Shown here: positions 22,282-29,139 of the stretch, piece after piece
How the letters are laid out: each line of letters starts with the position of its first letter
How positions within the stretch are numbered: the first letter of the stretch is position 1
Source of the DNA: Acidimicrobiaceae bacterium
Lineage (GTDB): Bacteria > Actinomycetota > Acidimicrobiia > Acidimicrobiales > Aldehydirespiratoraceae
Assembly: GCA_002729125.1 (NCBI GenBank)
Contig: PBTQ01000011.1
Span: 1 to 60,162, forward strand
Direction of reading: 5' to 3'
DNA length: 60,162 nt
Notes under the pieces: model-generated
The model's database searches: none
Told to the model about the DNA's origin: nothing
What the model saw: only the letters and a program-made list of their open reading frames with translations
Translations under genes and position numbers: made by a program

Positions 22282-23012
22282 TTATTCATTCATCGCGTAA
22301 GGCACGATCGTGCGGTTGTCCCAGAGCACTACCTGGCCGGTTTGCCAACGGACCCGGACCCGGAACTCGGCCCGGGTCTAATGGGCGTAGAGAAACGAAA
22401 GGAGGGCATCGCTCTCTTCGCGTGTGGGCTCTTCGATCCGGGTAACGAACGCCGGATTGACGTACAGCGCCCGACGACCACTGCGTGGGTGGATCTGCGC
22501 GACCGGGTGCGTCGCTGCTGTCGACGGACCCTCCTCTGTTCCTGGTAGACGTGCGTAGCGGTGAGTTCGGAAACCCACGCCTGGAGACGCAGTGACAGCC
22601 GGTCGAAGGCAAGCGCCGTATTCGCAAACCGCGTGTCACTCCCAATCGGCGACAACTCGCATGCATGCAGGATCGACAGGGCAGCAGGGGGCGAGGTGAA
22701 GGAGATGTCGCAGCACCAGAACTTGCCGCCGAAGGTCTCCGTGTCGTCGGGCTCCTTGATCACCTGAAGGATCGCAGGGTGTTCGGGGATGGCGTCGATG
22801 AACGGGTGCACGTAAGGGTCCCCGAACGACTCGCCGACACGAACGTAGTCGGCTACCGAGAACTCGCCTTGTCCAGACACCGCGAGGACGTGGTGCTCGT
22901 CGACCAGGTCCTGCAGCGCGCCGAGTTTGGCATCGTCGGTCTCGGCCAAGAGGACGCCGTCGATACGGGCGCCGAGCGGCGCAGCGAGCGGCGTGACGGT
23001 CCAGTCGTTCAC
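22282..23012 (-). pseudogene. TauD/TfdA-family dioxygenase-like pseudogene (one frameshift plus one in-frame TAG)
   Basis: ORF 22329..23012 gives the N-terminal half (...GGKFWCCDISF...SDTRFANT...LTATHVYQE). ORF 22378..22578, in another frame, gives ...THPVAQIHPRSGRRALYVNPAFVTRIE...LSFLYAH. After TAG 22378-22380 the same frame continues TRAEFRVRVRWQTGQVVLWDNRTIVPYAMNE to TAA 22282-22284. The frame switch is near 22530-22545. Confidence 0.7.
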
Positions 23013-23355
23013 GCCCTGTCCTTAGCCCGGCGCTTCGTTGCGGCGCAGGCGATCTTGAAGCAGGTAAAGCCGGCGATGGTTGCGGTCACGGCGTCAGTGC
23101 ACCCGGCCCTGACACATCATGCAAGGCTCAGAACACATTGCGACCTCCACGGAGGCGCGCATCGAGACGCTATGCCGGGAATGGTCGTCCGTTCTCGCAG
23201 CGCGTGCCGCACGATCAGCCAGACTCTGCAGCGATGCGCATCACCGACGACATAAGCACGGTCCTCGACTTAGCTGATTCGGAGAAGCAACAGTCCGTCG
23301 GCAGTTCCGGTCGCCGCAGTGGGCGCAGTCCACGCTGTGCTGCCACTGTAATCCA

Positions 23356-24552
23356 GTGGTAACACTTCCCCTCCCCTTCCCCACGCGCGACGCAGTCGAG
23401 AGCTGGGTTGACGACCATCTCGGCCACCTCTTCGATGGTCCGACGATCGGCTCTCCTGCCTTTCGAGGTGGCCAACGGTCCGCCGATGCGGCCCTCGCTG
23501 CGTTCGATGTTCGCAGGTACGCCGCGACCCGCAACGAGGTCGCCCCGATCGAGCGCCGCGGCGCTTCCCGTCTCTCGCCCTACATCCGCCATGGGTTGCT
23601 GCCGCTGCCCGAGGTCTGGAGGGCCGTCGCCGGCGGACCCAACCGCGATGTGGAGAAGTTTCGCGACGAGTTGCTGTGGCAGGAGTACAGCCGCCACTGG
23701 TACGCCCGCCTGGGCCGAGCCACCGCCGATCCGGTCCGCAACGCCCCAACCGACGTCCGGCCTGGCGACGGGTGGGATCGCATGCTGCCATGCTTAAATG
23801 CCGTGGTCGGTGAGCTCGAGCAGGACGGCTGGCTCGTCAACCAGACGCGCATGTGGCTGGCAGGCGACTGGACCGTGCGCCACGGTCAGGACTGGCGTCG
23901 AGGCGAAGATCGTTTCTTTCGCCATCTGCTCGACGGCTCCCGAGCTGCAAACCGACTCGGCTGGCAGTGGACCACCGGCGTTGGCTCGAACAAGCCCTAT
24001 GGCTTCAGCCGCTGGCAGGTCGAGAAGCGGGCGCCGGGGCTCTGTCATCGGTGTCCGCACCGTGATGCCTGCCCGATCGACGACTGGCCCGACGAGCCGT
24101 CGTTCGACTCGGTCGACTGGCCTGCAGAAGTCGACCTCACCGGCCCGGACGAGATCGTCACCCACGCAGCGCCCGACACCGTTTGGCTAACCGCAGAGTC
24201 GCTGGGCACGGCCGACCCTGCCCTCTCGCTCAACCCGGGCCTGCCGGTGGCTTTCGTCTTCGACGAGCCCCTGCTCGCCCGGCTGCGCCTCGACAGCAAG
24301 CGACTGGTGTTTCTCACCGAGACGCTCGCTGAACTCGCCGAGGATCACGATCTGGAGCTTCGACTCGGCGACCCGGTCGAGGAACTCGCCGGGTGCAGCC
24401 TTGCCGTCACTCATGCCCCCGTGCCCGGCTTTGCTGATCGAGCATCGGCGATCCGCCCCGTTGAAGTTCACCCCTGGCCGTGGCTTCGACAGCCTCGGAC
24501 GGGTTCGGTGCGGTCCTTCAGCGCATGGCGCAAGAAGGCCGATCGGCGATGA
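23356..24552 (+). CDS. Photolyase/cryptochrome-family protein with reversed domain order (FAD-binding helical domain first, alpha/beta domain last)
   Basis: The N-terminal region carries SRLSPYIRHGLL, ELLWQEYSRHW, DGWLVNQTRMWLAGDW, LLDGSRAANRLGWQWTTG and Cys motif LPCLN...GLCHRCPHRDACP. The C-terminal ~125 aa read VWLTAESLGTADPAL...PVAFVFDEPLL...RLVFLTETLAEL...VRSFSAWRKKA, like a photolyase N-terminal domain. GTG start. Confidence 0.75.
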   Translation: MVTLPLPFPTRDAVESWVDDHLGHLFDGPTIGSPAFRGGQRSADAALAAFDVRRYAATRNEVAPIERRGASRLSPYIRHGLLPLPEVWRAVAGGPNRDVEKFRDELLWQEYSRHWYARLGRATADPVRNAPTDVRPGDGWDRMLPCLNAVVGELEQDGWLVNQTRMWLAGDWTVRHGQDWRRGEDRFFRHLLDGSRAANRLGWQWTTGVGSNKPYGFSRWQVEKRAPGLCHRCPHRDACPIDDWPDEPSFDSVDWPAEVDLTGPDEIVTHAAPDTVWLTAESLGTADPALSLNPGLPVAFVFDEPLLARLRLDSKRLVFLTETLAELAEDHDLELRLGDPVEELAGCSLAVTHAPVPGFADRASAIRPVEVHPWPWLRQPRTGSVRSFSAWRKKADRR

Positions 24553-24923
24553 GCGTAGGTCCCGGCGACGTCAAGATCTGCGCCTCCTGCGGACGAGCGA
24601 TGGCCTGGCGCAAGGCGTGGGCGAAGAACTGGGACGACGTCCGCTACTGCTCGAACGCCTGCCGTAGTCGCAAGTTGAAAGCGGTCGACCACGACCTCGA
24701 AGCCGCCATCCTTCGCCTGCTCTCTCAGCGGTCGGGCGGGGCCACGATCTGTCCGAACGAAGCGGCCAAGGTCGTCGAACCCGACGACTGGCGAGCGCTG
24801 ATGGAACCCGCCCGGTCTGCAGCCCGGCGACTCGTGGCCTCAGGCGACGTCGTGATCACGCAACAGGGGGCGATCGTCGACCCATCGTTCGCCAAGGGTC
24901 CGATCAGGGTCCGGCGAGCATGA
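24549..24923 (+). CDS. DUF2256 zinc-ribbon fused to a DUF3253 domain protein
   Basis: KICASCGRAMAWRKAWAKNWDDVRYCSNACRSRK is the DUF2256 pattern. ATICPNEAAKVV...WRALMEPARSAARRLVASGDVVITQQGAIVDPSFAKGPIRVR is the DUF3253 pattern. ATG 24549 overlaps the upstream stop (ATGA). Confidence 0.72.
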   Translation: MSVGPGDVKICASCGRAMAWRKAWAKNWDDVRYCSNACRSRKLKAVDHDLEAAILRLLSQRSGGATICPNEAAKVVEPDDWRALMEPARSAARRLVASGDVVITQQGAIVDPSFAKGPIRVRRA

Positions 24924-25138
24924 GCGACACCGACCTCGGACTCGACGGCGAGACGCACCTCGACGACGACGCCAACAATCGGGTGCACCACCACGCACGG
25001 GTCGGGGACGAACACCCGCAGGGGTCCGATGGTTCGTTCACGACGCTGTGCGGACTCCGGATCACGCCGCGCCCCGACGCCGGAAAATTCCCGTGCTGTC
25101 CAATGTGTGCACATGTCATGGGCCGCCCCTGTCGGTGA
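24920..25138 (+). CDS. Small Cys-rich protein, DUF3039-like zinc ribbon
   Basis: 72-aa ORF with high third-position GC. The C-terminal part TLCGLRITPRPDAGKFPCCPMCAHV resembles the actinobacterial DUF3039 pattern (CGxxxxPxRDPxxFPxCPxC). ATG overlaps the upstream stop (ATGA). Confidence 0.55.
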   Translation: MSDTDLGLDGETHLDDDANNRVHHHARVGDEHPQGSDGSFTTLCGLRITPRPDAGKFPCCPMCAHVMGRPCR

Positions 25139-25322
25139 GCAGCCCGGCGACCGTGAACAGTGCGCACAAACCCGCATCGCAGAGCAGACGCCCGGGAGTC
25201 GGCTCCGCTCCGTCGCGACGGAACATGCGCTCCAGACCGTTCCGTGGGATGAGATCGGGCTTGTCGCTCACGGCCCGAACCGCACCGCCGCACCACCGAT
25301 GCCAGAGGAGCAGCGAGGCGAA

Positions 25323-26147
25323 CTAGCGCTCGACGAGGTCCGTGGTCTCGGGCTGGCAGACGGGGCACCACCAGACATTGCGCCCGTCGGCATTCGCCGT
25401 TTCGATCGGCTCGGCGCAACGACGACATGGCGCGCCGGTGCGCTTGTAGACGTAGAGCCGGTCACCGCGTTTGAGCTCGCGGGGCGATTCAACGCCCATC
25501 TCGTCGGGCAGAACGGTCACGATCTTACCCATCTTCTCGCCGTCCTTCAGTGCGACCACCGACCGGCGCCAGATGTCGTCGACCGCCCAACGCTCAAGGG
25601 ACTTGGCAACGGTCAACGGTTGGATCCCAGCGAGGAATAACAGCTCGGACCGATACACGTTGCCAATTCCGGCGACAACCTTCTGGTCGAGCAACGCAGC
25701 CCCGATCGAGATAGACCGGCGGCTGAGTCGGCGCTCGAGCTCGTCGGCTCCATCGGTGGGATCGAGGATCGGGTCCGGGCCGAGTCGAGCTCGGAGATCG
25801 TCCTCTTCCTCTGGGGTGATGAGCTCGCACGCAGTCGGGCCCGCGAGGTGCAGATGATCGGTTTCGGTCTCCATGACGAGCCGAGCGTTGGGCGACGGCT
25901 CCGGCGCCGGCAGCGACCGCATCCGGAACTTGCCGAACAATCCGAGATGCACGTGCAGGATGTCACCCTCGTCGAACCGATAGAAGAGGTGCTTTCCGAA
26001 CGCTTCAATGCCGGTAATGGTCTGGCCGTTCAGGGTCGAAGCGCCGTCGGCGAAGCGTCCCTGTGGCGATGACGTCCGGACCGGCTTGCCGCGGAAGCGC
26101 CGTCCCTGCAGCCGAGCGGCCCGATGAAGAACGTGTCCTTCCGGCAT
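25323..26147 (-). CDS. nei: Endonuclease VIII-like / formamidopyrimidine-DNA glycosylase family (Nei-type)
   Basis: N-terminal MPEGHVLHR (catalytic Pro2-Glu3), H2TH region, and a C-terminal zinc finger CRRCAEPIETANADGRNVWWCPVCQ. Confidence 0.9.
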   Translation of the reverse strand: MPEGHVLHRAARLQGRRFRGKPVRTSSPQGRFADGASTLNGQTITGIEAFGKHLFYRFDEGDILHVHLGLFGKFRMRSLPAPEPSPNARLVMETETDHLHLAGPTACELITPEEEDDLRARLGPDPILDPTDGADELERRLSRRSISIGAALLDQKVVAGIGNVYRSELLFLAGIQPLTVAKSLERWAVDDIWRRSVVALKDGEKMGKIVTVLPDEMGVESPRELKRGDRLYVYKRTGAPCRRCAEPIETANADGRNVWWCPVCQPETTDLVER

Positions 26148-26150
26148 GGA

Positions 26151-26831
26151 TCAGCCGAAGGCACTGCTGGGAAGATCGGCCACGTCACCATCGATTGCCT
26201 CGGCGATCACCTTGGCGACCGTTTCCGGCGACAACCCTTCGGGCATCCTTGGCGCCTGACCCTCGATGGCACGATCGGCGAGCCCGGTCTCGGTGTGAGG
26301 CGGCCGGGCGTCGATCACCCGCACCTTAGCTCTCCGCGCCTCGCGGGCGAGGGCTTCGTCGAACGAGGCCACCGCTGCCTTCGACGCGCCGTAGGCGGCC
26401 ATGCCGGGCAGGTTCCGCTCGGCGATCACACCGGAGATGTTGACGATCACGCCGCCTGGGCGGAGGTGCGCGAGCGCAGCCTTGGCGAGGGCGATCGGCA
26501 CGAACGTGTTAGTGAGGAACAACTCTTCCATCGTGTCGAGCGACAGATCGACGACGTTGCCGAACGCCACGACACCGATGGCGTTCACGACCACGTCGAG
26601 TCCCCCGCCGTGATCGACGGCGGCGTCGACGGCGACGTCAGCGTTGCGGGGGTCCCGAAGGTCGAGGGCAAGACGCACGGCGGCGACAGGCACGCCGCCG
26701 AGCCGGTCGGCATTTCGGGCGACAAGGGTCAAGACGTCACCTCGAGCAGCGAGCTCGGAGGCGATCGCAGCGCCAAGCCCGCCAGAACCACCGGCGATCA
26801 AGACGGAACGAGGGTGAGAGATCTCGGACAC
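26151..26831 (-). CDS. Short-chain dehydrogenase/reductase (SDR)
   Basis: LIAGGSGGLGAAIA (TGxxxGxG-like) and YGASKAAV (YxxxK). Its stop lies 3 nt upstream of the nei start. Confidence 0.85.
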   Translation of the reverse strand: MSEISHPRSVLIAGGSGGLGAAIASELAARGDVLTLVARNADRLGGVPVAAVRLALDLRDPRNADVAVDAAVDHGGGLDVVVNAIGVVAFGNVVDLSLDTMEELFLTNTFVPIALAKAALAHLRPGGVIVNISGVIAERNLPGMAAYGASKAAVASFDEALAREARRAKVRVIDARPPHTETGLADRAIEGQAPRMPEGLSPETVAKVIAEAIDGDVADLPSSAFG

Positions 26832-26961
26832 GTGAGTACTACGGGGCTGCGAGCGTGCCCGGATTCAGCCAGCGTGCGTCCTGGCCGTCGGCAAACAGCG
26901 CCGATACCCAGGGTTCGACGCCACGGTTCACCGCGGCCGCCGGCGGACCTGCGAACCTTGG

Positions 26962-27321
26962 ATGATGGCTTCTCGCACTCGTGCTGCCCGCTATGCCAAG
27001 CGTCGCAAGAACCGCATGGCCAAGCGCGACCACGATCTTACTGACGACCAGTGGGCTGACTTGCAGGAGGCCTGGAACGGCTGCGCGTATTGCGGCGCCA
27101 CCGGCGTGCCCATGCAAAAGGACACGGTTCTCGCGATCTCGCGAGGCGGTCGCTACACGATCGACAACGTCGTGCCCGCCTGTCGGTCGTGCAACGCGAG
27201 CAAATGCAACGACGAGGTCACCGGTTGGATGCGACGCAAGAAACTCGACGAGAAACGCTTCCTGGTCCAGCAGTACGAGATCCGCAAGGAGCTCGAAGGG
27301 CACGCCGCCGACCCTTCGTAG
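26962..27321 (+). CDS. Small HNH endonuclease
   Basis: 119 aa. CAYCG...DTVLAISRGGRYTIDNVVPACRSCNASK (HNH/CxxC...CxxC pattern) with a basic N-terminus. Confidence 0.8.
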   Translation: MMASRTRAARYAKRRKNRMAKRDHDLTDDQWADLQEAWNGCAYCGATGVPMQKDTVLAISRGGRYTIDNVVPACRSCNASKCNDEVTGWMRRKKLDEKRFLVQQYEIRKELEGHAADPS

Positions 27322-27334
27322 ACTCCACATCCAG

Positions 27335-28414
27335 ATGTCCAAGTCCACCCGCCTCATCACGATCAATCCGACGTCGATCGATGACGCACTCGTTACCGAG
27401 GCGGGCGCCGCACTCGCGGACGGGAAGCTCGTGGCGATCCCGACCGAGACGGTCTACGGCCTCGGCTGCAACGGACTTGATCCCGACGCGATCGCCGGGG
27501 TCTTCGAGGCCAAGGGCCGACCGGCATCTGATCCACTGATCGTCCACGTCGACGGTGTCGCCATGGCCGAAACGCTGATTGAAGGCGGCCTTCCCGCCGT
27601 CGCCGCCCGGCTTGCGGCCGCGTTCTGGCCCGGACCCCTCACGATGGTTCTGCCCAAGACCCAGATCGTGCCCGATGCGATCACCAGCAGTGGCCCGACC
27701 GTGGGCGTCCGGTGTCCGGCGCACCCGGTCGCCCGGGCCCTGATCACTGCGTCCGGCGTGCCCGTCGCCGCGCCGAGCGCCAACCGGTTCGGGCGCATCA
27801 GCCCGACCACGGCGGCACACGTCGTCGAAGAACTCGGTGACCGGATCGACCTAATCGTCGACGCCGGCCCAGCCGATTACGGAGTCGAATCCACAGTGGT
27901 CACGTTCGAGGGCGATGACGCCGTGATCCTTCGCCATGGAGCACTCACCGCCGAAGCCCTCGCCGCCCATGTCACTGTGCGCGAGGTCGAAGAGGCCGAA
28001 ACCGAAGCCCGAGCTGCGGCGCCCGGCCATGACATTCGGCACTACTCCCCGCGGACACCGGCGATCGCCACAACGACGACCCCCGGCGATGCGGCGGAGG
28101 GCGACATTGTCTACGTCGCGTACGAAGACCGTGAGATCTCCCTTCCCAGCGGATGGAGCTTCTTCTCCCTCGGCAACCGATCCGACCTCGAACTCGTCGC
28201 CCGAGACCTCTACGCGAACCTGCGGCGTCTCGACGCCGCCGCCCACGACCTGATCGTCATCGAACTCGCCGGCGCCGGCGGTATCGGTCGAGCGATCGAC
28301 GATCGGCTCATCCGAGCGGCGTCAGGGAACGTGACGACGACGGCCGCCGCACTCGCCGAAGCCGTGGCTGAGATGCGTCAGGCGAAACCGCCATCCGCCC
28401 CTCGGCGGCGGTGA
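27335..28414 (+). CDS. tsaC: L-threonylcarbamoyladenylate synthase, long Sua5/YwlC form
   Basis: LVAIPTETVYGLGCNGLD...FEAKGRPASDPLIVHV...PGPLTMVLP...VGVRCPAHPVA...APSANRFGRISPT plus a C-terminal Sua5 domain. Start trimmed to ATG 27335 within ORF 26981..28414. Confidence 0.9.
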   Translation: MSKSTRLITINPTSIDDALVTEAGAALADGKLVAIPTETVYGLGCNGLDPDAIAGVFEAKGRPASDPLIVHVDGVAMAETLIEGGLPAVAARLAAAFWPGPLTMVLPKTQIVPDAITSSGPTVGVRCPAHPVARALITASGVPVAAPSANRFGRISPTTAAHVVEELGDRIDLIVDAGPADYGVESTVVTFEGDDAVILRHGALTAEALAAHVTVREVEEAETEARAAAPGHDIRHYSPRTPAIATTTTPGDAAEGDIVYVAYEDREISLPSGWSFFSLGNRSDLELVARDLYANLRRLDAAAHDLIVIELAGAGGIGRAIDDRLIRAASGNVTTTAAALAEAVAEMRQAKPPSAPRRR

Positions 28415-28446
28415 CGGGCTCAGACCTCGAGCGGTAGAGTCGCCGC

Positions 28447-29139
28447 ATGCGTCGTGCTGAGAAAGCCGATCGGATCGGAGAGATCCTCGACGACCTCTAC
28501 CCAAAGCCGCCGATCCCACTCGACCACACCGACCCGTACACCCTGACGGTCGCCGTTGCGCTCTCGGCGCAAACCACCGACAAGAAGGTCAACGAAGTCA
28601 CTCCGGCCCTGTTCGCCCAGGCGAACACGCCCGAGAAGATGGCCGAACTCTCCCCCGAGGAGATCCTGGGGTACATCAAGCAGGTCGGCCTGGCGCCAAC
28701 CAAGGCCAAGAACCTCTCGACGATGGCCCACCAGATCCTCGATGCCGGCGGCGAGATCATCCCCGACTGGGACTTTCTGGAGTCACTCGCCGGCGTCGGT
28801 CACAAGACAGCCGGCGTCGTCATGGCCCAATCGTTCGGCGTGCCGTCGTTTCCGGTCGACACCCACATCCACCGACTCGCCTACCGCTGGGGCTTGTCTG
28901 ACGGCACGACCGTCGAGCGCACCGAGCGCGATCTCAAAGCAGTATTTCCGGAGGACACCTGGAACCGTCGTCACCTCCAGATCATCTTCTTCGGGCGTGA
29001 GTATTGTCCGGCGCGTAATCACGATCTGGCAGCCTGCGAAATCTGCTCGTGGGCGGCCACCAAGAAGCAGATCGCCCTCGAGGCGAAGGCAACACCGAAG
29101 AAACTCTCGGTCGCCAAGACGTCCACCTCTCGGGGCTGA
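28447..29139 (+). CDS. nth: Endonuclease III
   Basis: HhH-GPD motif LAGVGHKTAGVVM...PVDTHIHRL and a C-terminal 4Fe-4S cluster loop CPARNHDLAACEICS. Confidence 0.92.
   Translation: MRRAEKADRIGEILDDLYPKPPIPLDHTDPYTLTVAVALSAQTTDKKVNEVTPALFAQANTPEKMAELSPEEILGYIKQVGLAPTKAKNLSTMAHQILDAGGEIIPDWDFLESLAGVGHKTAGVVMAQSFGVPSFPVDTHIHRLAYRWGLSDGTTVERTERDLKAVFPEDTWNRRHLQIIFFGREYCPARNHDLAACEICSWAATKKQIALEAKATPKKLSVAKTSTSRG

Follow-up and report, generated by a model that had tools for sequence, protein, structure and literature searches.

Photolyases are usually seen as single-protein repair systems, one protein working with one photon, and the locus described here raises the question of why a photolyase gene should be translationally coupled to two small genes. 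Within the window, by which we mean the whole stretch of 60,162 nucleotides analysed, three plus-strand open reading frames (g1, g2 and g3; Table 1) were found just where the initial annotation had placed a coupled three-gene unit, and both of the overlaps it described are present, as an ATGA shared by the g1 stop and the g2 start (24549-24552) and by the g2 stop and the g3 start (24920-24923). Overlaps of the ATGA type occur frequently in operons of high GC content; they stand for coupling, yet are unremarkable by themselves. The three reading frames are taken as more than chance ORFs because they have homologues and start in a manner consistent with the N-termini of these, with third-position bias in addition for g2 and g3. 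Geometrically, the trio is set off by one divergent and one convergent gene, the latter encoding a Nei/Fpg-family glycosylase (25323-26147, minus strand); a second photolyase gene was not found in the 60-kb window.

Co-transcription, which the initial annotation had proposed to check, agrees with a metatranscriptome contig of 1111 nt and ~92% identity that covers 24175-25149, hence the 3' end of g1 together with g2, g3 and both junctions; the contig derives from a 92%-identical relative, could reflect contaminating DNA and, like the other contigs, carries no strand information. Contigs of 151 nt from RNA runs that match in full (99+% band) are located in each of g1, g2 and g3. Based on the common strand, the ATGA overlaps and the RNA-derived contig over the junctions, the three genes form a single operon with translational coupling. 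As a whole, the locus is best explained as an operon of three genes for photoreactivation in a marine actinobacterium of Acidimicrobiia type, an explanation that we consider rather probable.

Table 1. Features of the operon and its immediate surroundings (positions in the window)
Feature	Position	Strand	Description
Candidate -10-like hexamer CACTGT	23344..23349	+	7 nt upstream of g1 GTG; low confidence
g1	23356..24552	+	GTG start, 398 aa; NewPHL/SPL-class photolyase, Fe-S subgroup (Ac-like)
g1 catalytic all-α FAD/lesion-binding domain	23356..24105	+	~residues 1-250
g1 putative [4Fe-4S] ligands	C146 23791-23793; C230 24043-24045; C233 24052-24054; C239 24070-24072	+	
g1 C-terminal Z-domain	24148..24549	+	residues 265-398, α/β, like antenna-binding N-terminal domain of canonical photolyases
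g2	24549..24923	+	ATG start, 124 aa, pI 9.7; DUF2256-DUF3253 fusion protein
g2 DUF2256 zinc ribbon	24573..24668	+	C11-x2-C14-x19-C34-x3-C38, TRASH clan
g2 DUF3253 domain	24690..24917	+	Pfam 94 bits; PDB 2NS0 match E 2.7e-23
g3	24920..25138	+	ATG start, 72 aa; acidic N-half, Cys-rich C-half
g3-to-glycosylase spacer	25139..25322	.	operon end by geometry

The sequence around the operon offers few signals of its own. Upstream of g1 there is no apparent Shine-Dalgarno-like sequence, and a [TC]AnnnT hexamer is located at -12 to -7 of the start codon in 9 of 24 relatives having g1 as first gene, a count that stands without a shuffled-sequence expectation beside it; in two further relatives (L006, L058) the hexamer is shifted by one base. 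The corresponding CACTGT suggests, as a motif argument of low confidence, that the g1 mRNA may be leaderless. It is contained in an inverted repeat, CCACTG-N5-CAGTGG (23343-23359), which overlaps the g1 start codon; considered as an operator, the repeat is not called a regulatory site because only a 93%-identical locus (L010) has it too. Scans of 22900-25500 for consensus (sigma-70) promoters and terminators found nothing, and the spacer between g3 and the nei-type gene has no terminator-like site and folds no better than its shuffles (z = -0.11).

The identity of g1 is the firmest element of the locus. Its matches in Pfam, NCBIfam and the PDB are confined to the photolyase helical domain, with FAD_binding_7 as the only Pfam match (residues 104-214) and an alignment of residues 32-213 to residues 171-361 of the Thermus class I photolyase (PDB; E 2e-15). 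The AF2 model (pLDDT 91.4, pTM 0.91) matches photolyase helical domains over ~240 aligned columns in Foldseek and contains a confident C-terminal α/β domain. The protein has 4660 homologues, and in an alignment of 21 sequences E105, W108, N162, R165, M166, D193, A198, N199, G202, W203 and W205 are invariant. Included in this set are the counterparts of the residues used by E. coli photolyase in binding the cyclobutane pyrimidine dimer (CPD), E105, W108, N162, M166 and W205 for E274, W277, N341, M345 and W384, and in binding FAD, R165, D193, A198, N199 and G202 for R344, D372, A377, N378 and G381 (E. coli residues as given in PMC8476157). Also invariant are C146, C230, C233 and C239, whose spacing of 84/3/6 is that of C155/C239/C242/C248 in RfSPL from Rhodococcus fascians (Xu et al. 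2021, PMC8476157); g1 thus has the four-Cys arrangement that distinguishes SPL subgroup Ac/C, whereas the mainly alphaproteobacterial SPL subgroup A lacks the four Cys, according to that paper.

Comparison with the known enzymes places g1 further. With RfSPL, a member of SPL subgroup Ac, it has in common a length of ~400 aa without N-terminal α/β domain, the pattern C-x83-C-x2-C-x5-C, a C-terminal extension of ~150 aa and an actinobacterial origin, and the published residue positions give a constant offset of -9 (R165/D193/A198/G202 in g1 vs R174/D202/A207/G211). Unlike RfSPL, g1 comes from a marine genome of Acidimicrobiia type, and its translation is coupled to that of two small genes; a word search of Xu et al. 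found an operon mentioned only for SPL with FeS-BCP (PMC8476157). The NewPHLs studied by Emmerich et al. 2020 (DsNewPHL, MmNewPHL; PMC7736829) show the same reversed bilobal organization as g1, catalytic domain first and Z-domain last, and differ from it in being alphaproteobacterial. The FeS-BCPs (PhrB, CryB; DPRP, PF04244) resemble the g1 family in having four Cys in the catalytic domain for a [4Fe-4S] cluster, which is putative in g1; unlike g1, they exhibit the canonical domain order with an N-terminal DPRP, a lumazine antenna, (6-4) specificity and a gap of 12 residues from the third to the fourth Cys. Assignment of g1 as FeS-BCP (prokaryotic 6-4 photolyase) was rejected on absence of the N-terminal DPRP domain, for which g1 gave no match at E <= 1 and true FeS-BCPs at related loci score 161-259 bits.

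The assignment of g1 as NewPHL/SPL-class photolyase of the Fe-S subgroup is therefore well supported. The initial annotation had called it permuted photolyase-like and had regarded all three proteins as domains of unknown function. Reversal of the domain order stands, but the class, including its topology, has already been published and characterised biochemically, as FAD- and Fe-S-containing and active in CPD repair on single-stranded DNA (ssDNA; PMC8476157; PMC7736829), with NewPHL described as a CPD photolyase specific for ssDNA (PMC7736829). By homology to RfSPL, DsNewPHL and MmNewPHL, g1 is predicted to split CPDs in a light-dependent, FAD-requiring reaction (blue/near-UV) and with preference for ssDNA. 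As we infer from the conserved residues, the N-terminal all-α domain would bind both FAD and the pyrimidine dimer, and the four Cys would hold an iron-sulfur cluster.

Emmerich et al. (PMC7736829) predicted the Z-domain of NewPHL to seal the FAD site and to resemble the antenna-binding domain, and reported for it one conserved Trp and a GFF motif. In the g1 family, residues 265-398 are conserved among homologues, with W277, W374, W376 and a PVPGF motif (G358-F359) in place of GFF as invariant features. Modelled alone with AF2 (pLDDT 86), the Z-domain finds its best PDB matches in CRY1, class II CPD photolyase and CRY2 (~127 aligned columns, TMq 0.54-0.60, probability 1.0). Because sequence searches gave no signal, the proposed homology to the antenna domain derives from predicted structure alone: the Z-domain profile returned from the PDB only a chance match to a tRNA CCA-adding enzyme (E 0.14), and a comparison with the N-domains of five canonical photolyases by hhalign reached a probability of only 3%. 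The confident structure prediction nevertheless corroborates the published proposal that the Z-domain may be the counterpart of the antenna domain at the opposite end of the protein, where it would pack on the flavin site and so replace the usual N-terminal antenna domain.

The question then shifts to g2 and g3. To our knowledge, a function has not been put to the test for any DUF2256 protein, and our literature search on DUF2256, DUF3253 and DUF3039 (names, Pfam/InterPro numbers) retrieved no functional study and no reported photolyase link. Reading g2 as a DUF2256-DUF3253 fusion proved correct, with both domains above their Pfam gathering scores (57.5 bits vs 25 for DUF2256; 94 bits vs 22.1 for DUF3253) and the motif quoted for it (KICASCGR..WRKAW..W..VRYCS..CR) present; the architecture is one already named by NCBI, and the homologues of g2 number in the thousands. 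DUF2256 (PF10013) is a member of the TRASH clan (CL0175; PMC4047054), along with zf-FCS, MYND, HIT, YacG/DUF329 and ribosomal L24e. Common to g2 and DUF2256 are the C-x2-C-x19-C-x3-C ribbon and the YCS..C signature; the four Cys of g2 are invariant in 22 sequences, and residues 1-45 carry a net charge of +7 and three conserved Trp. Residues 46-122 align end to end with PDB 2NS0, a hypothetical protein from Rhodococcus sp. RHA1, and the two have the motifs ICPS(E/D) and GPIR(I/V)R in common; 2NS0, unlike g2, is a stand-alone DUF3253 domain (PF11625).

Gene neighbourhoods connect the DUF2256-type genes to photolyases. Neighbour counts were taken from tblastn and phmmer, for the crude high-GC gene caller had failed to call g1 at 9 of the 80 loci. 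Adjacent to NewPHL and co-directional with it, g2 occurs in 22 of 80 genome loci, downstream in 8 and upstream in 14, and the g1-g2 pair is kept in two gene orders and in at least three genomic contexts, among them an ilvC/serA context with a 4-nt overlap. In the neighbourhoods of 80 metagenome loci found with g2, the photolyase superfamily constitutes by far the largest neighbour cluster (29 genes vs 8 in the next). A photolyase neighbours ~40% of the fusion loci and 65% of the DUF2256-only loci (13/20), compared to none of seven stand-alone DUF3253 genes. FeS-BCPs, which often share operons with SPL and, in our data, with DUF2256-type genes, lie beside 7 of the 20 DUF2256-only genes (tblastn), in line with the initial annotation, which had named DUF2256 genes as frequent neighbours of FeS-BCP-type photolyase genes; one locus (L128) has FeS-BCP, g2 and NewPHL in a row. 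The expectation of an Fe-S-dependent enzyme as the specific partner did not survive: besides NewPHL and FeS-BCP (Pfam DPRP), the direct neighbours of DUF2256-type genes include DASH photolyases, above their NCBIfam cutoff, and class II-like photolyases, for which the class II NCBIfam model is the best match, below cutoff; a class I-like photolyase, again by a best NCBIfam match below cutoff, is one gene away. The link is thus with photolyases in general. It is also not obligatory, because ~70% of close NewPHL loci lack g2 within 6 kb and about half of the well-flanked g2 loci lack a photolyase nearby. Conservation of synteny is accordingly partial: the g1-g2 pair recurs, yet in ~28% of close NewPHL loci, and g3 accompanies it in no more than a single narrow clade.

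The third gene is of a different kind. Full-length homologues, conserved at 72 aa, number 25, and the family is very rare, with ~24 clusters among 1.84 billion representatives. Its conserved signature of H23-H24-H25, C44, C59, C60, C63 and C71 is invariant in 23 aligned sequences; the N-half has a net charge of -8. Differences from relatives are distributed over codon positions 1/2/3 as 11/10/33, a bias as in g2, and on such sequence grounds g3 is a genuine small protein that purifying selection maintains. The synteny of the trio is kept in L002, L005, L011, L091 and L145, with the position of g3 after g2 conserved in six loci; more distant relatives are found in unrelated gene contexts. The top-scoring "relative" of the exhaustive search, P0266 (1724 aa, 13 stretches), was set aside as a repeat protein matching only the acidic DEDAND segment. 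While the DUF2256 and DUF3253 labels hold in profile searches, the label "DUF3039-like" is confirmed in part: the quoted motif (LCG...FPCCPMC) is present and 22 of the 25 family members match the DUF3039 model at E <= 1 (best E 6.9e-6), but g3 itself scores below the cutoffs of both DUF3039 (18.1 bits vs 22.7; E 0.0022; profile positions 27-53 only) and zf-HC3 (18.9 bits vs 25). With DUF3039 (PF11238; SCO2947/ML1016 actinobacterial signature protein) and zf-HC3 (PF16827), g3 has in common a zinc-knuckle core, (A/T)LCG ... P(V/C)CP.C, preceded by a His-containing segment; in contrast to DUF3039, the g3 family is shorter and very rare, and its members carry an HHH triad, a CC pair and one additional C-terminal Cys. 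This points to g3 as a remote, sub-threshold relative of DUF3039 rather than a member.

The partner role that we propose for g2 and g3 is drawn from gene association. Termination-reinitiation at the two ATGA overlaps would provide for translation of g2 and g3, and the three proteins would therefore be made together; their physical cooperation may follow. In this arrangement g2 might serve as a nucleic-acid-binding accessory of photolyases, for example by binding to damaged or unwound DNA or to the enzyme itself, and g3, with its acidic tail, might be a lineage-specific His/Cys protein that binds zinc and modulates g2 or the complex. DUF2256 would be the photolyase-linked module and DUF3253 an add-on, fused mainly in actinobacterial-type high-GC genomes. 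A helper function of the DUF2256 family for photolyases is plausible from these genomic patterns. The broader proposal, that DUF2256 ribbons, whether or not they are joined to DUF3253, represent widespread unrecognised photolyase partners and that g3 tunes the partner in one marine actinobacterial clade, is tentative, and we hold it to be possible rather than likely. Counting against the partner model, RfSPL and two NewPHLs were each able to repair DNA in vitro on their own (PMC8476157; PMC7736829).

Instead of assisting the enzyme, g2 could be a transcription factor, with a zinc ribbon joined to a winged-helix-like domain, through which light or DNA damage controls the operon; g3 would be its modulator or anti-factor. 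The basic character of g2 and the helix-turn-helix-like secondary-structure pattern of its DUF3253 part are suitable for such a function; operons often encode their own small regulators, DNA mimicry by the acidic tail of g3 would be conceivable, and the MerR-type genes upstream of DUF2256 in L162 and L173 suggest light-regulated clusters. However, it is DUF2256 alone (~40 aa, no HTH) that tracks the photolyases (13/20) and not stand-alone DUF3253 (0/7). The gene pair, moreover, is always co-directional and mostly <30 nt apart or overlapping, which fits stoichiometric co-production, and a conserved operator-like palindrome was not found beyond the closest relative of the window. A regulatory role is thus considered unlikely. 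Less likely again is that g2, g3 or both are metal/redox helpers, involved in zinc or Fe-S delivery, protection or electron transfer for the oxygen-labile cluster of NewPHL/FeS-BCP. Metal sensing and trafficking were the functions originally proposed for the TRASH clan (PMC4047054), three His and five Cys are conserved in g3, the partners encountered most often are the two photolyase classes with Fe-S, and the cluster of RfSPL is reported to be prone to oxidation (PMC8476157); nonetheless, the DASH and class II-like enzymes encoded adjacently and the class I-like one encoded one gene away are without Fe-S cluster, and the four Cys of DUF2256 resemble a structural zinc site.

Adjacency could in principle be historical hitch-hiking without shared function, g2 and g3 being unrelated small genes that came to lie downstream of a photolyase gene, as might be read from an association that is partial in both directions and from g3 relatives that occur elsewhere. 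Both gene orders, at least three contexts, at least four photolyase classes as adjacent genes with a fifth (class I-like) one gene off, and the recurrence of overlapping or near-overlapping junctions render this quite improbable, the more so as chance adjacency would amount to roughly 0.1% (our own estimate from one to three photolyase genes per few thousand, with no computed control). That g3 is a chance ORF in DNA of 65% GC, as its shortness, the sub-threshold Pfam matches and several overlapping minus-strand ORFs might be taken to indicate, is scarcely credible given its 25 same-length homologues with invariant His and Cys, its g2-like third-position bias, its retained place after g2 and its coverage by RNA-run contigs.

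The partner role of the zinc-ribbon protein, the reading preferred here, bears on a puzzle: in vitro, NewPHL and DASH enzymes repair only single-stranded DNA. A basic, Trp-rich partner might bind or open the damaged duplex and so give these ssDNA-specific enzymes access to chromosomal lesions; alternatively, a partner of the g2 type might recruit several classes of photolyase or regulate them. The reversed-domain NewPHL/SPL class and the DUF2256-DUF3253 fusion architecture are already known, and were g2 and g3 unrelated passengers, the locus would be merely another NewPHL gene of a marine actinobacterium. A small zinc-ribbon gene that adjoins photolyase genes of four classes or more, upstream or downstream and in many cases with overlapping frames, is a candidate for a cofactor protein or a dedicated regulator and, if true, would provide the first functional handle on the DUF2256, DUF3253 and DUF3039-like families.

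Three forward-strand ORFs occupy 23356-25138, with coordinates and ATGA stop/start overlaps just as the initial annotation had described, and comprise a NewPHL/SPL-class photolyase gene (g1), a DUF2256-DUF3253 fusion gene (g2) and a gene for a 72-aa His/Cys protein (g3). Because the TauD-family and nei flanks both lie on the minus strand, the three-gene unit is bounded by geometry alone. At the window's 65% G+C, long ORFs are weak evidence by themselves; the frames of all three genes are backed by homologues of matching N-termini and lengths, and g2 differs from its relatives mostly at third codon positions (28/24/55 at positions 1/2/3). The TauD-family gene, whose minus-strand ORF matches profile positions 2-204 of 267 before an Arg-rich tail, looks frameshifted, as a pseudogene or by assembly error.

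Coordinates of the operon and neighbouring features in the window
Feature	Position	Strand	Remark
TauD-family ORF, upstream neighbour of g1	22329-23012	minus	
Remaining C-terminal part of TauD	22378-22578		other frame
Perfect inverted repeat	23343-23359		CCACTG-TAATC-CAGTGG, overlaps g1 start codon
g1	23356-24552	+	GTG start, 398 aa
g1/g2 overlap	24549-24552		ATGA
g2	24549-24923	+	124 aa
g2/g3 overlap	24920-24923		ATGA
g3	24920-25138	+	72 aa
DNA-repair-rich neighbourhood	25323-29139		
Fpg/Nei-family glycosylase gene (nei), downstream neighbour of g3	25323-26147	minus	
HNH endonuclease gene	26962-27321		
Sua5/TsaC gene	about 27341-28414		
HhH-GPD (Nth-like) glycosylase gene	28447-29139		

The operon sequence is present in seawater metagenomes, and parts of it occur in three RNA runs. 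A single 1111-nt contig from a metatranscriptome, at about 92% identity, spans 24175-25149 and hence the 3' end of g1, the whole of g2 and g3 and both overlaps; 151-nt contigs from the two other runs lie within g1, g2 and g3 in the 99+% identity band, with no differences listed. The RNA contigs fit co-transcription, one of them crossing both junctions, but they are strandless and DNA carry-over is possible. That g2 and g3 would be translated from the message of g1 by coupled translation is well supported. Scans around the operon (22900-25500) detected neither a sigma-70-type promoter nor an intrinsic terminator. Positions -12 to -7 relative to the start codon of g1 hold a [TC]AnnnT hexamer in the relatives closest to the window, where no ribosome-binding site is obvious; this hints, with low confidence, at a leaderless g1 message. 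The inverted repeat at the start codon is shared with a 93% identical locus (L010; CCACTGTGATCCAGTGG) but absent from the more remote relatives.

g1 adds a member to an already characterised class, the published SPL/NewPHL photolyases. Its photolyase match is restricted to the FAD-binding helical domain (Pfam FAD_binding_7, residues 104-214); only the C-terminal halves of NCBIfam photolyase models match, far under their cutoffs, and phmmer aligns residues 32-213 with residues 171-361 of Thermus class I photolyase. Across an alignment of 21 homologues (58-84% identity), E105, W108, N162, M166, W205, R165, D193, A198, N199 and G202 are invariant, these being the equivalents of E. coli substrate and FAD residues given in the text of Xu et al. 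(PMC8476157), whose named residues of Rhodococcus fascians SPL (RfSPL) map onto g1 at a constant offset of -9. Likewise invariant are C146, C230, C233 and C239, spaced exactly as C155/C239/C242/C248 of RfSPL. Because the active-site and FAD residues are invariant and the four cysteines have the RfSPL spacing, g1 is assigned from its sequence, with high confidence, to the Fe-S subgroup. It would be a flavin and iron-sulfur photolyase splitting cyclobutane dimers by light, a prediction that is well supported, probably in single-stranded DNA; for two NewPHLs, CPD repair on single-stranded DNA only is described in the text of Emmerich et al. (PMC7736829).

The description of g1 as a permuted photolyase is correct, but the bilobal architecture with reversed domain order is already published in that source, where a figure legend likens the first 125 residues of the C-terminal alpha/beta Z-domain to the antenna-binding domain (PMC7736829). 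The AF2 model of g1 (pLDDT 91.4, pTM 0.91) has a beta-alpha-beta C-terminal domain. Modelled alone (pLDDT 86), the Z-domain best matches cryptochrome 1, class II CPD photolyase and CRY2 in the PDB (about 127 columns, TMq 0.54-0.60, probability 1.0); these are whole chains listed without target coordinates, on which the modelled domain would be placed at the antenna-type domain. Sequence-profile comparisons with the PDB and canonical photolyase N-domains gave no signal for this likeness, and no NewPHL structure is among the PDB matches to the g1 model.

The initial annotation's fusion assignment for g2 holds, the Pfam thresholds of DUF2256 and DUF3253 both being exceeded. This is a known architecture, named 'DUF2256 and DUF3253 domain-containing protein' by NCBI, and common, with both domains present in all 120 of the g2 matches listed, out of 4099. 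The DUF2256 part, of the TRASH clan alongside zf-FCS, MYND, HIT, YacG/DUF329 and L24e (PMC4047054), has invariant cysteines (C-x2-C-x19-C-x3-C), three Trp and a strongly basic character (net +7 over 45 residues); the uncharacterised Rhodococcus protein of PDB 2NS0 matches the DUF3253 part from end to end.

Among 80 metagenome loci fetched with the g2 alignment (53 fusion, 20 DUF2256-only, 7 DUF3253-only), the photolyase superfamily is by far the largest neighbour cluster, with 29 genes against 8 in the next. A photolyase neighbour accompanies about 20-21 of the 53 fusion loci, 13 of the 20 DUF2256-only loci and none of the 7 DUF3253-only loci; the link is carried by DUF2256, not DUF3253. Where at least 1.3 kb is present on both sides (26 fusion loci), a photolyase-like gene lies within about 1.8 kb in 13 and directly adjacent in 11. 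Thirteen fusion loci adjoin NewPHL and four FeS-BCP, the prokaryotic (6-4) photolyases, which bears out the initial annotation's statement that DUF2256 genes often neighbour FeS-BCP genes; at L128 1490-4615, FeS-BCP, fusion and NewPHL are consecutive and co-directional, separated by about 5 to 24 nt. The association takes in photolyases generally: further neighbours are a DASH cryptochrome, a class II-like photolyase that carries a fused FAD oxidoreductase and, at a distance of one gene, a class I-like photolyase. At L127 527-2980 and L142 509-2989, a class II-like photolyase and a domain resembling an FAD-dependent amine oxidase or desaturase are parts of one ORF (about 815 aa), with a g2-type fusion gene about 20 nt downstream. 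At L162 631-1617 and L173, a MerR-family HTH gene directly precedes a stand-alone DUF2256 gene, followed at L162 by a photolyase-superfamily gene, reminiscent of light-inducible MerR/LitR-controlled clusters.

Seen from the photolyase, conserved synteny is borne out in part. Among 80 genome loci of g1 relatives (57-93% identity; mostly Acidimicrobiia MAGs, some Klenkia, Euzebya, Microthrix and others), the fusion adjoins NewPHL on the same strand in 22, 8 downstream as in the window and 14 upstream; it lies close on the opposite strand at L040, and a DUF2256-only gene is immediately upstream at L037. The link is not obligatory: g2 is absent from most close NewPHL loci, and some copies of it occur on their own. 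In a separate clade the order is ilvC, g2, NewPHL, serA, and g2 overlaps g1 by 4 nt. Other recurrent NewPHL neighbours, judged by eye from cluster representatives except for FeS-BCP (6 loci), include a large opposite-strand DEAD/DEAH-type helicase (8 loci), an NhaA-type-antiporter-like membrane protein (by sequence, 7 loci) and a 168-aa protein resembling anti-sigma-factor kinase (6 loci). At L064 4989-5855 a rhodopsin-like gene with seven helices by sequence pattern (RYVDWLLTVPLLL), another light-related neighbour, is directly upstream of NewPHL on the same strand.

From the basic charge, high Trp content and zinc stabilisation of g2, and from its repeated coupling to photolyase genes, we infer that it may serve as a photolyase accessory, binding nucleic acid or the enzyme. 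Alternatively, g2 might regulate the operon. A helper role of g2 and g3 towards the Fe-S cluster, in metal or redox handling, is weakened by neighbours of the DASH, class II-like and class I-like types. Hitch-hiking would explain the adjacency without function, but, with each genome holding one to three photolyase genes, chance adjacency is estimated, rather than computed, at near 0.1%.

The accessory reading of g2 would extend to g3 as a zinc-binding addition specific to its clade, with an acidic tail that may engage basic g2. The family is rare: g3 has 25 homologues of essentially equal length (61-94% identity), and 1.84 billion cluster representatives, searched exhaustively with HMMER, gave only 25 matches, one of them spurious. 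In the family signature an N-half of acidic character precedes an invariant HHH triad, followed by LCG, by PCCP.C and by PC at the terminus, with five conserved Cys in all. A spurious ORF is opposed by the homologues and by differences from the L091 counterpart that are mostly third-position (11/10/33). Of the label 'DUF3039-like', remote kinship stands and membership does not, because g3 is below threshold (18.1 against 22.7 bits) yet 22/25 family members match weakly (best E 6.9e-6); g3 is also under the zf-HC3 threshold. It occurs in 3/80 NewPHL loci (L002, L005, L011), always immediately after g2, and more distant relatives have unrelated contexts. L091, a 269-kb contig, has the window's order g1, g2, g3, nei, SDR, HNH, sua5, and after g3 the gene order of the whole repair-rich neighbourhood is the same. 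On this long-read contig (2439-3630) the g1 orthologue is in two frames, broken near residue 290, with g2 and g3 intact; the break is either a sequencing frameshift or a sign that the photolyase gene is decaying while its partners are kept.

Neither the recurrent DUF2256-photolyase coupling nor the g3 family is described in the word-searched text of Xu et al. and Emmerich et al. or in the other literature searched. The coupling is not a demonstrated system but a testable lead.
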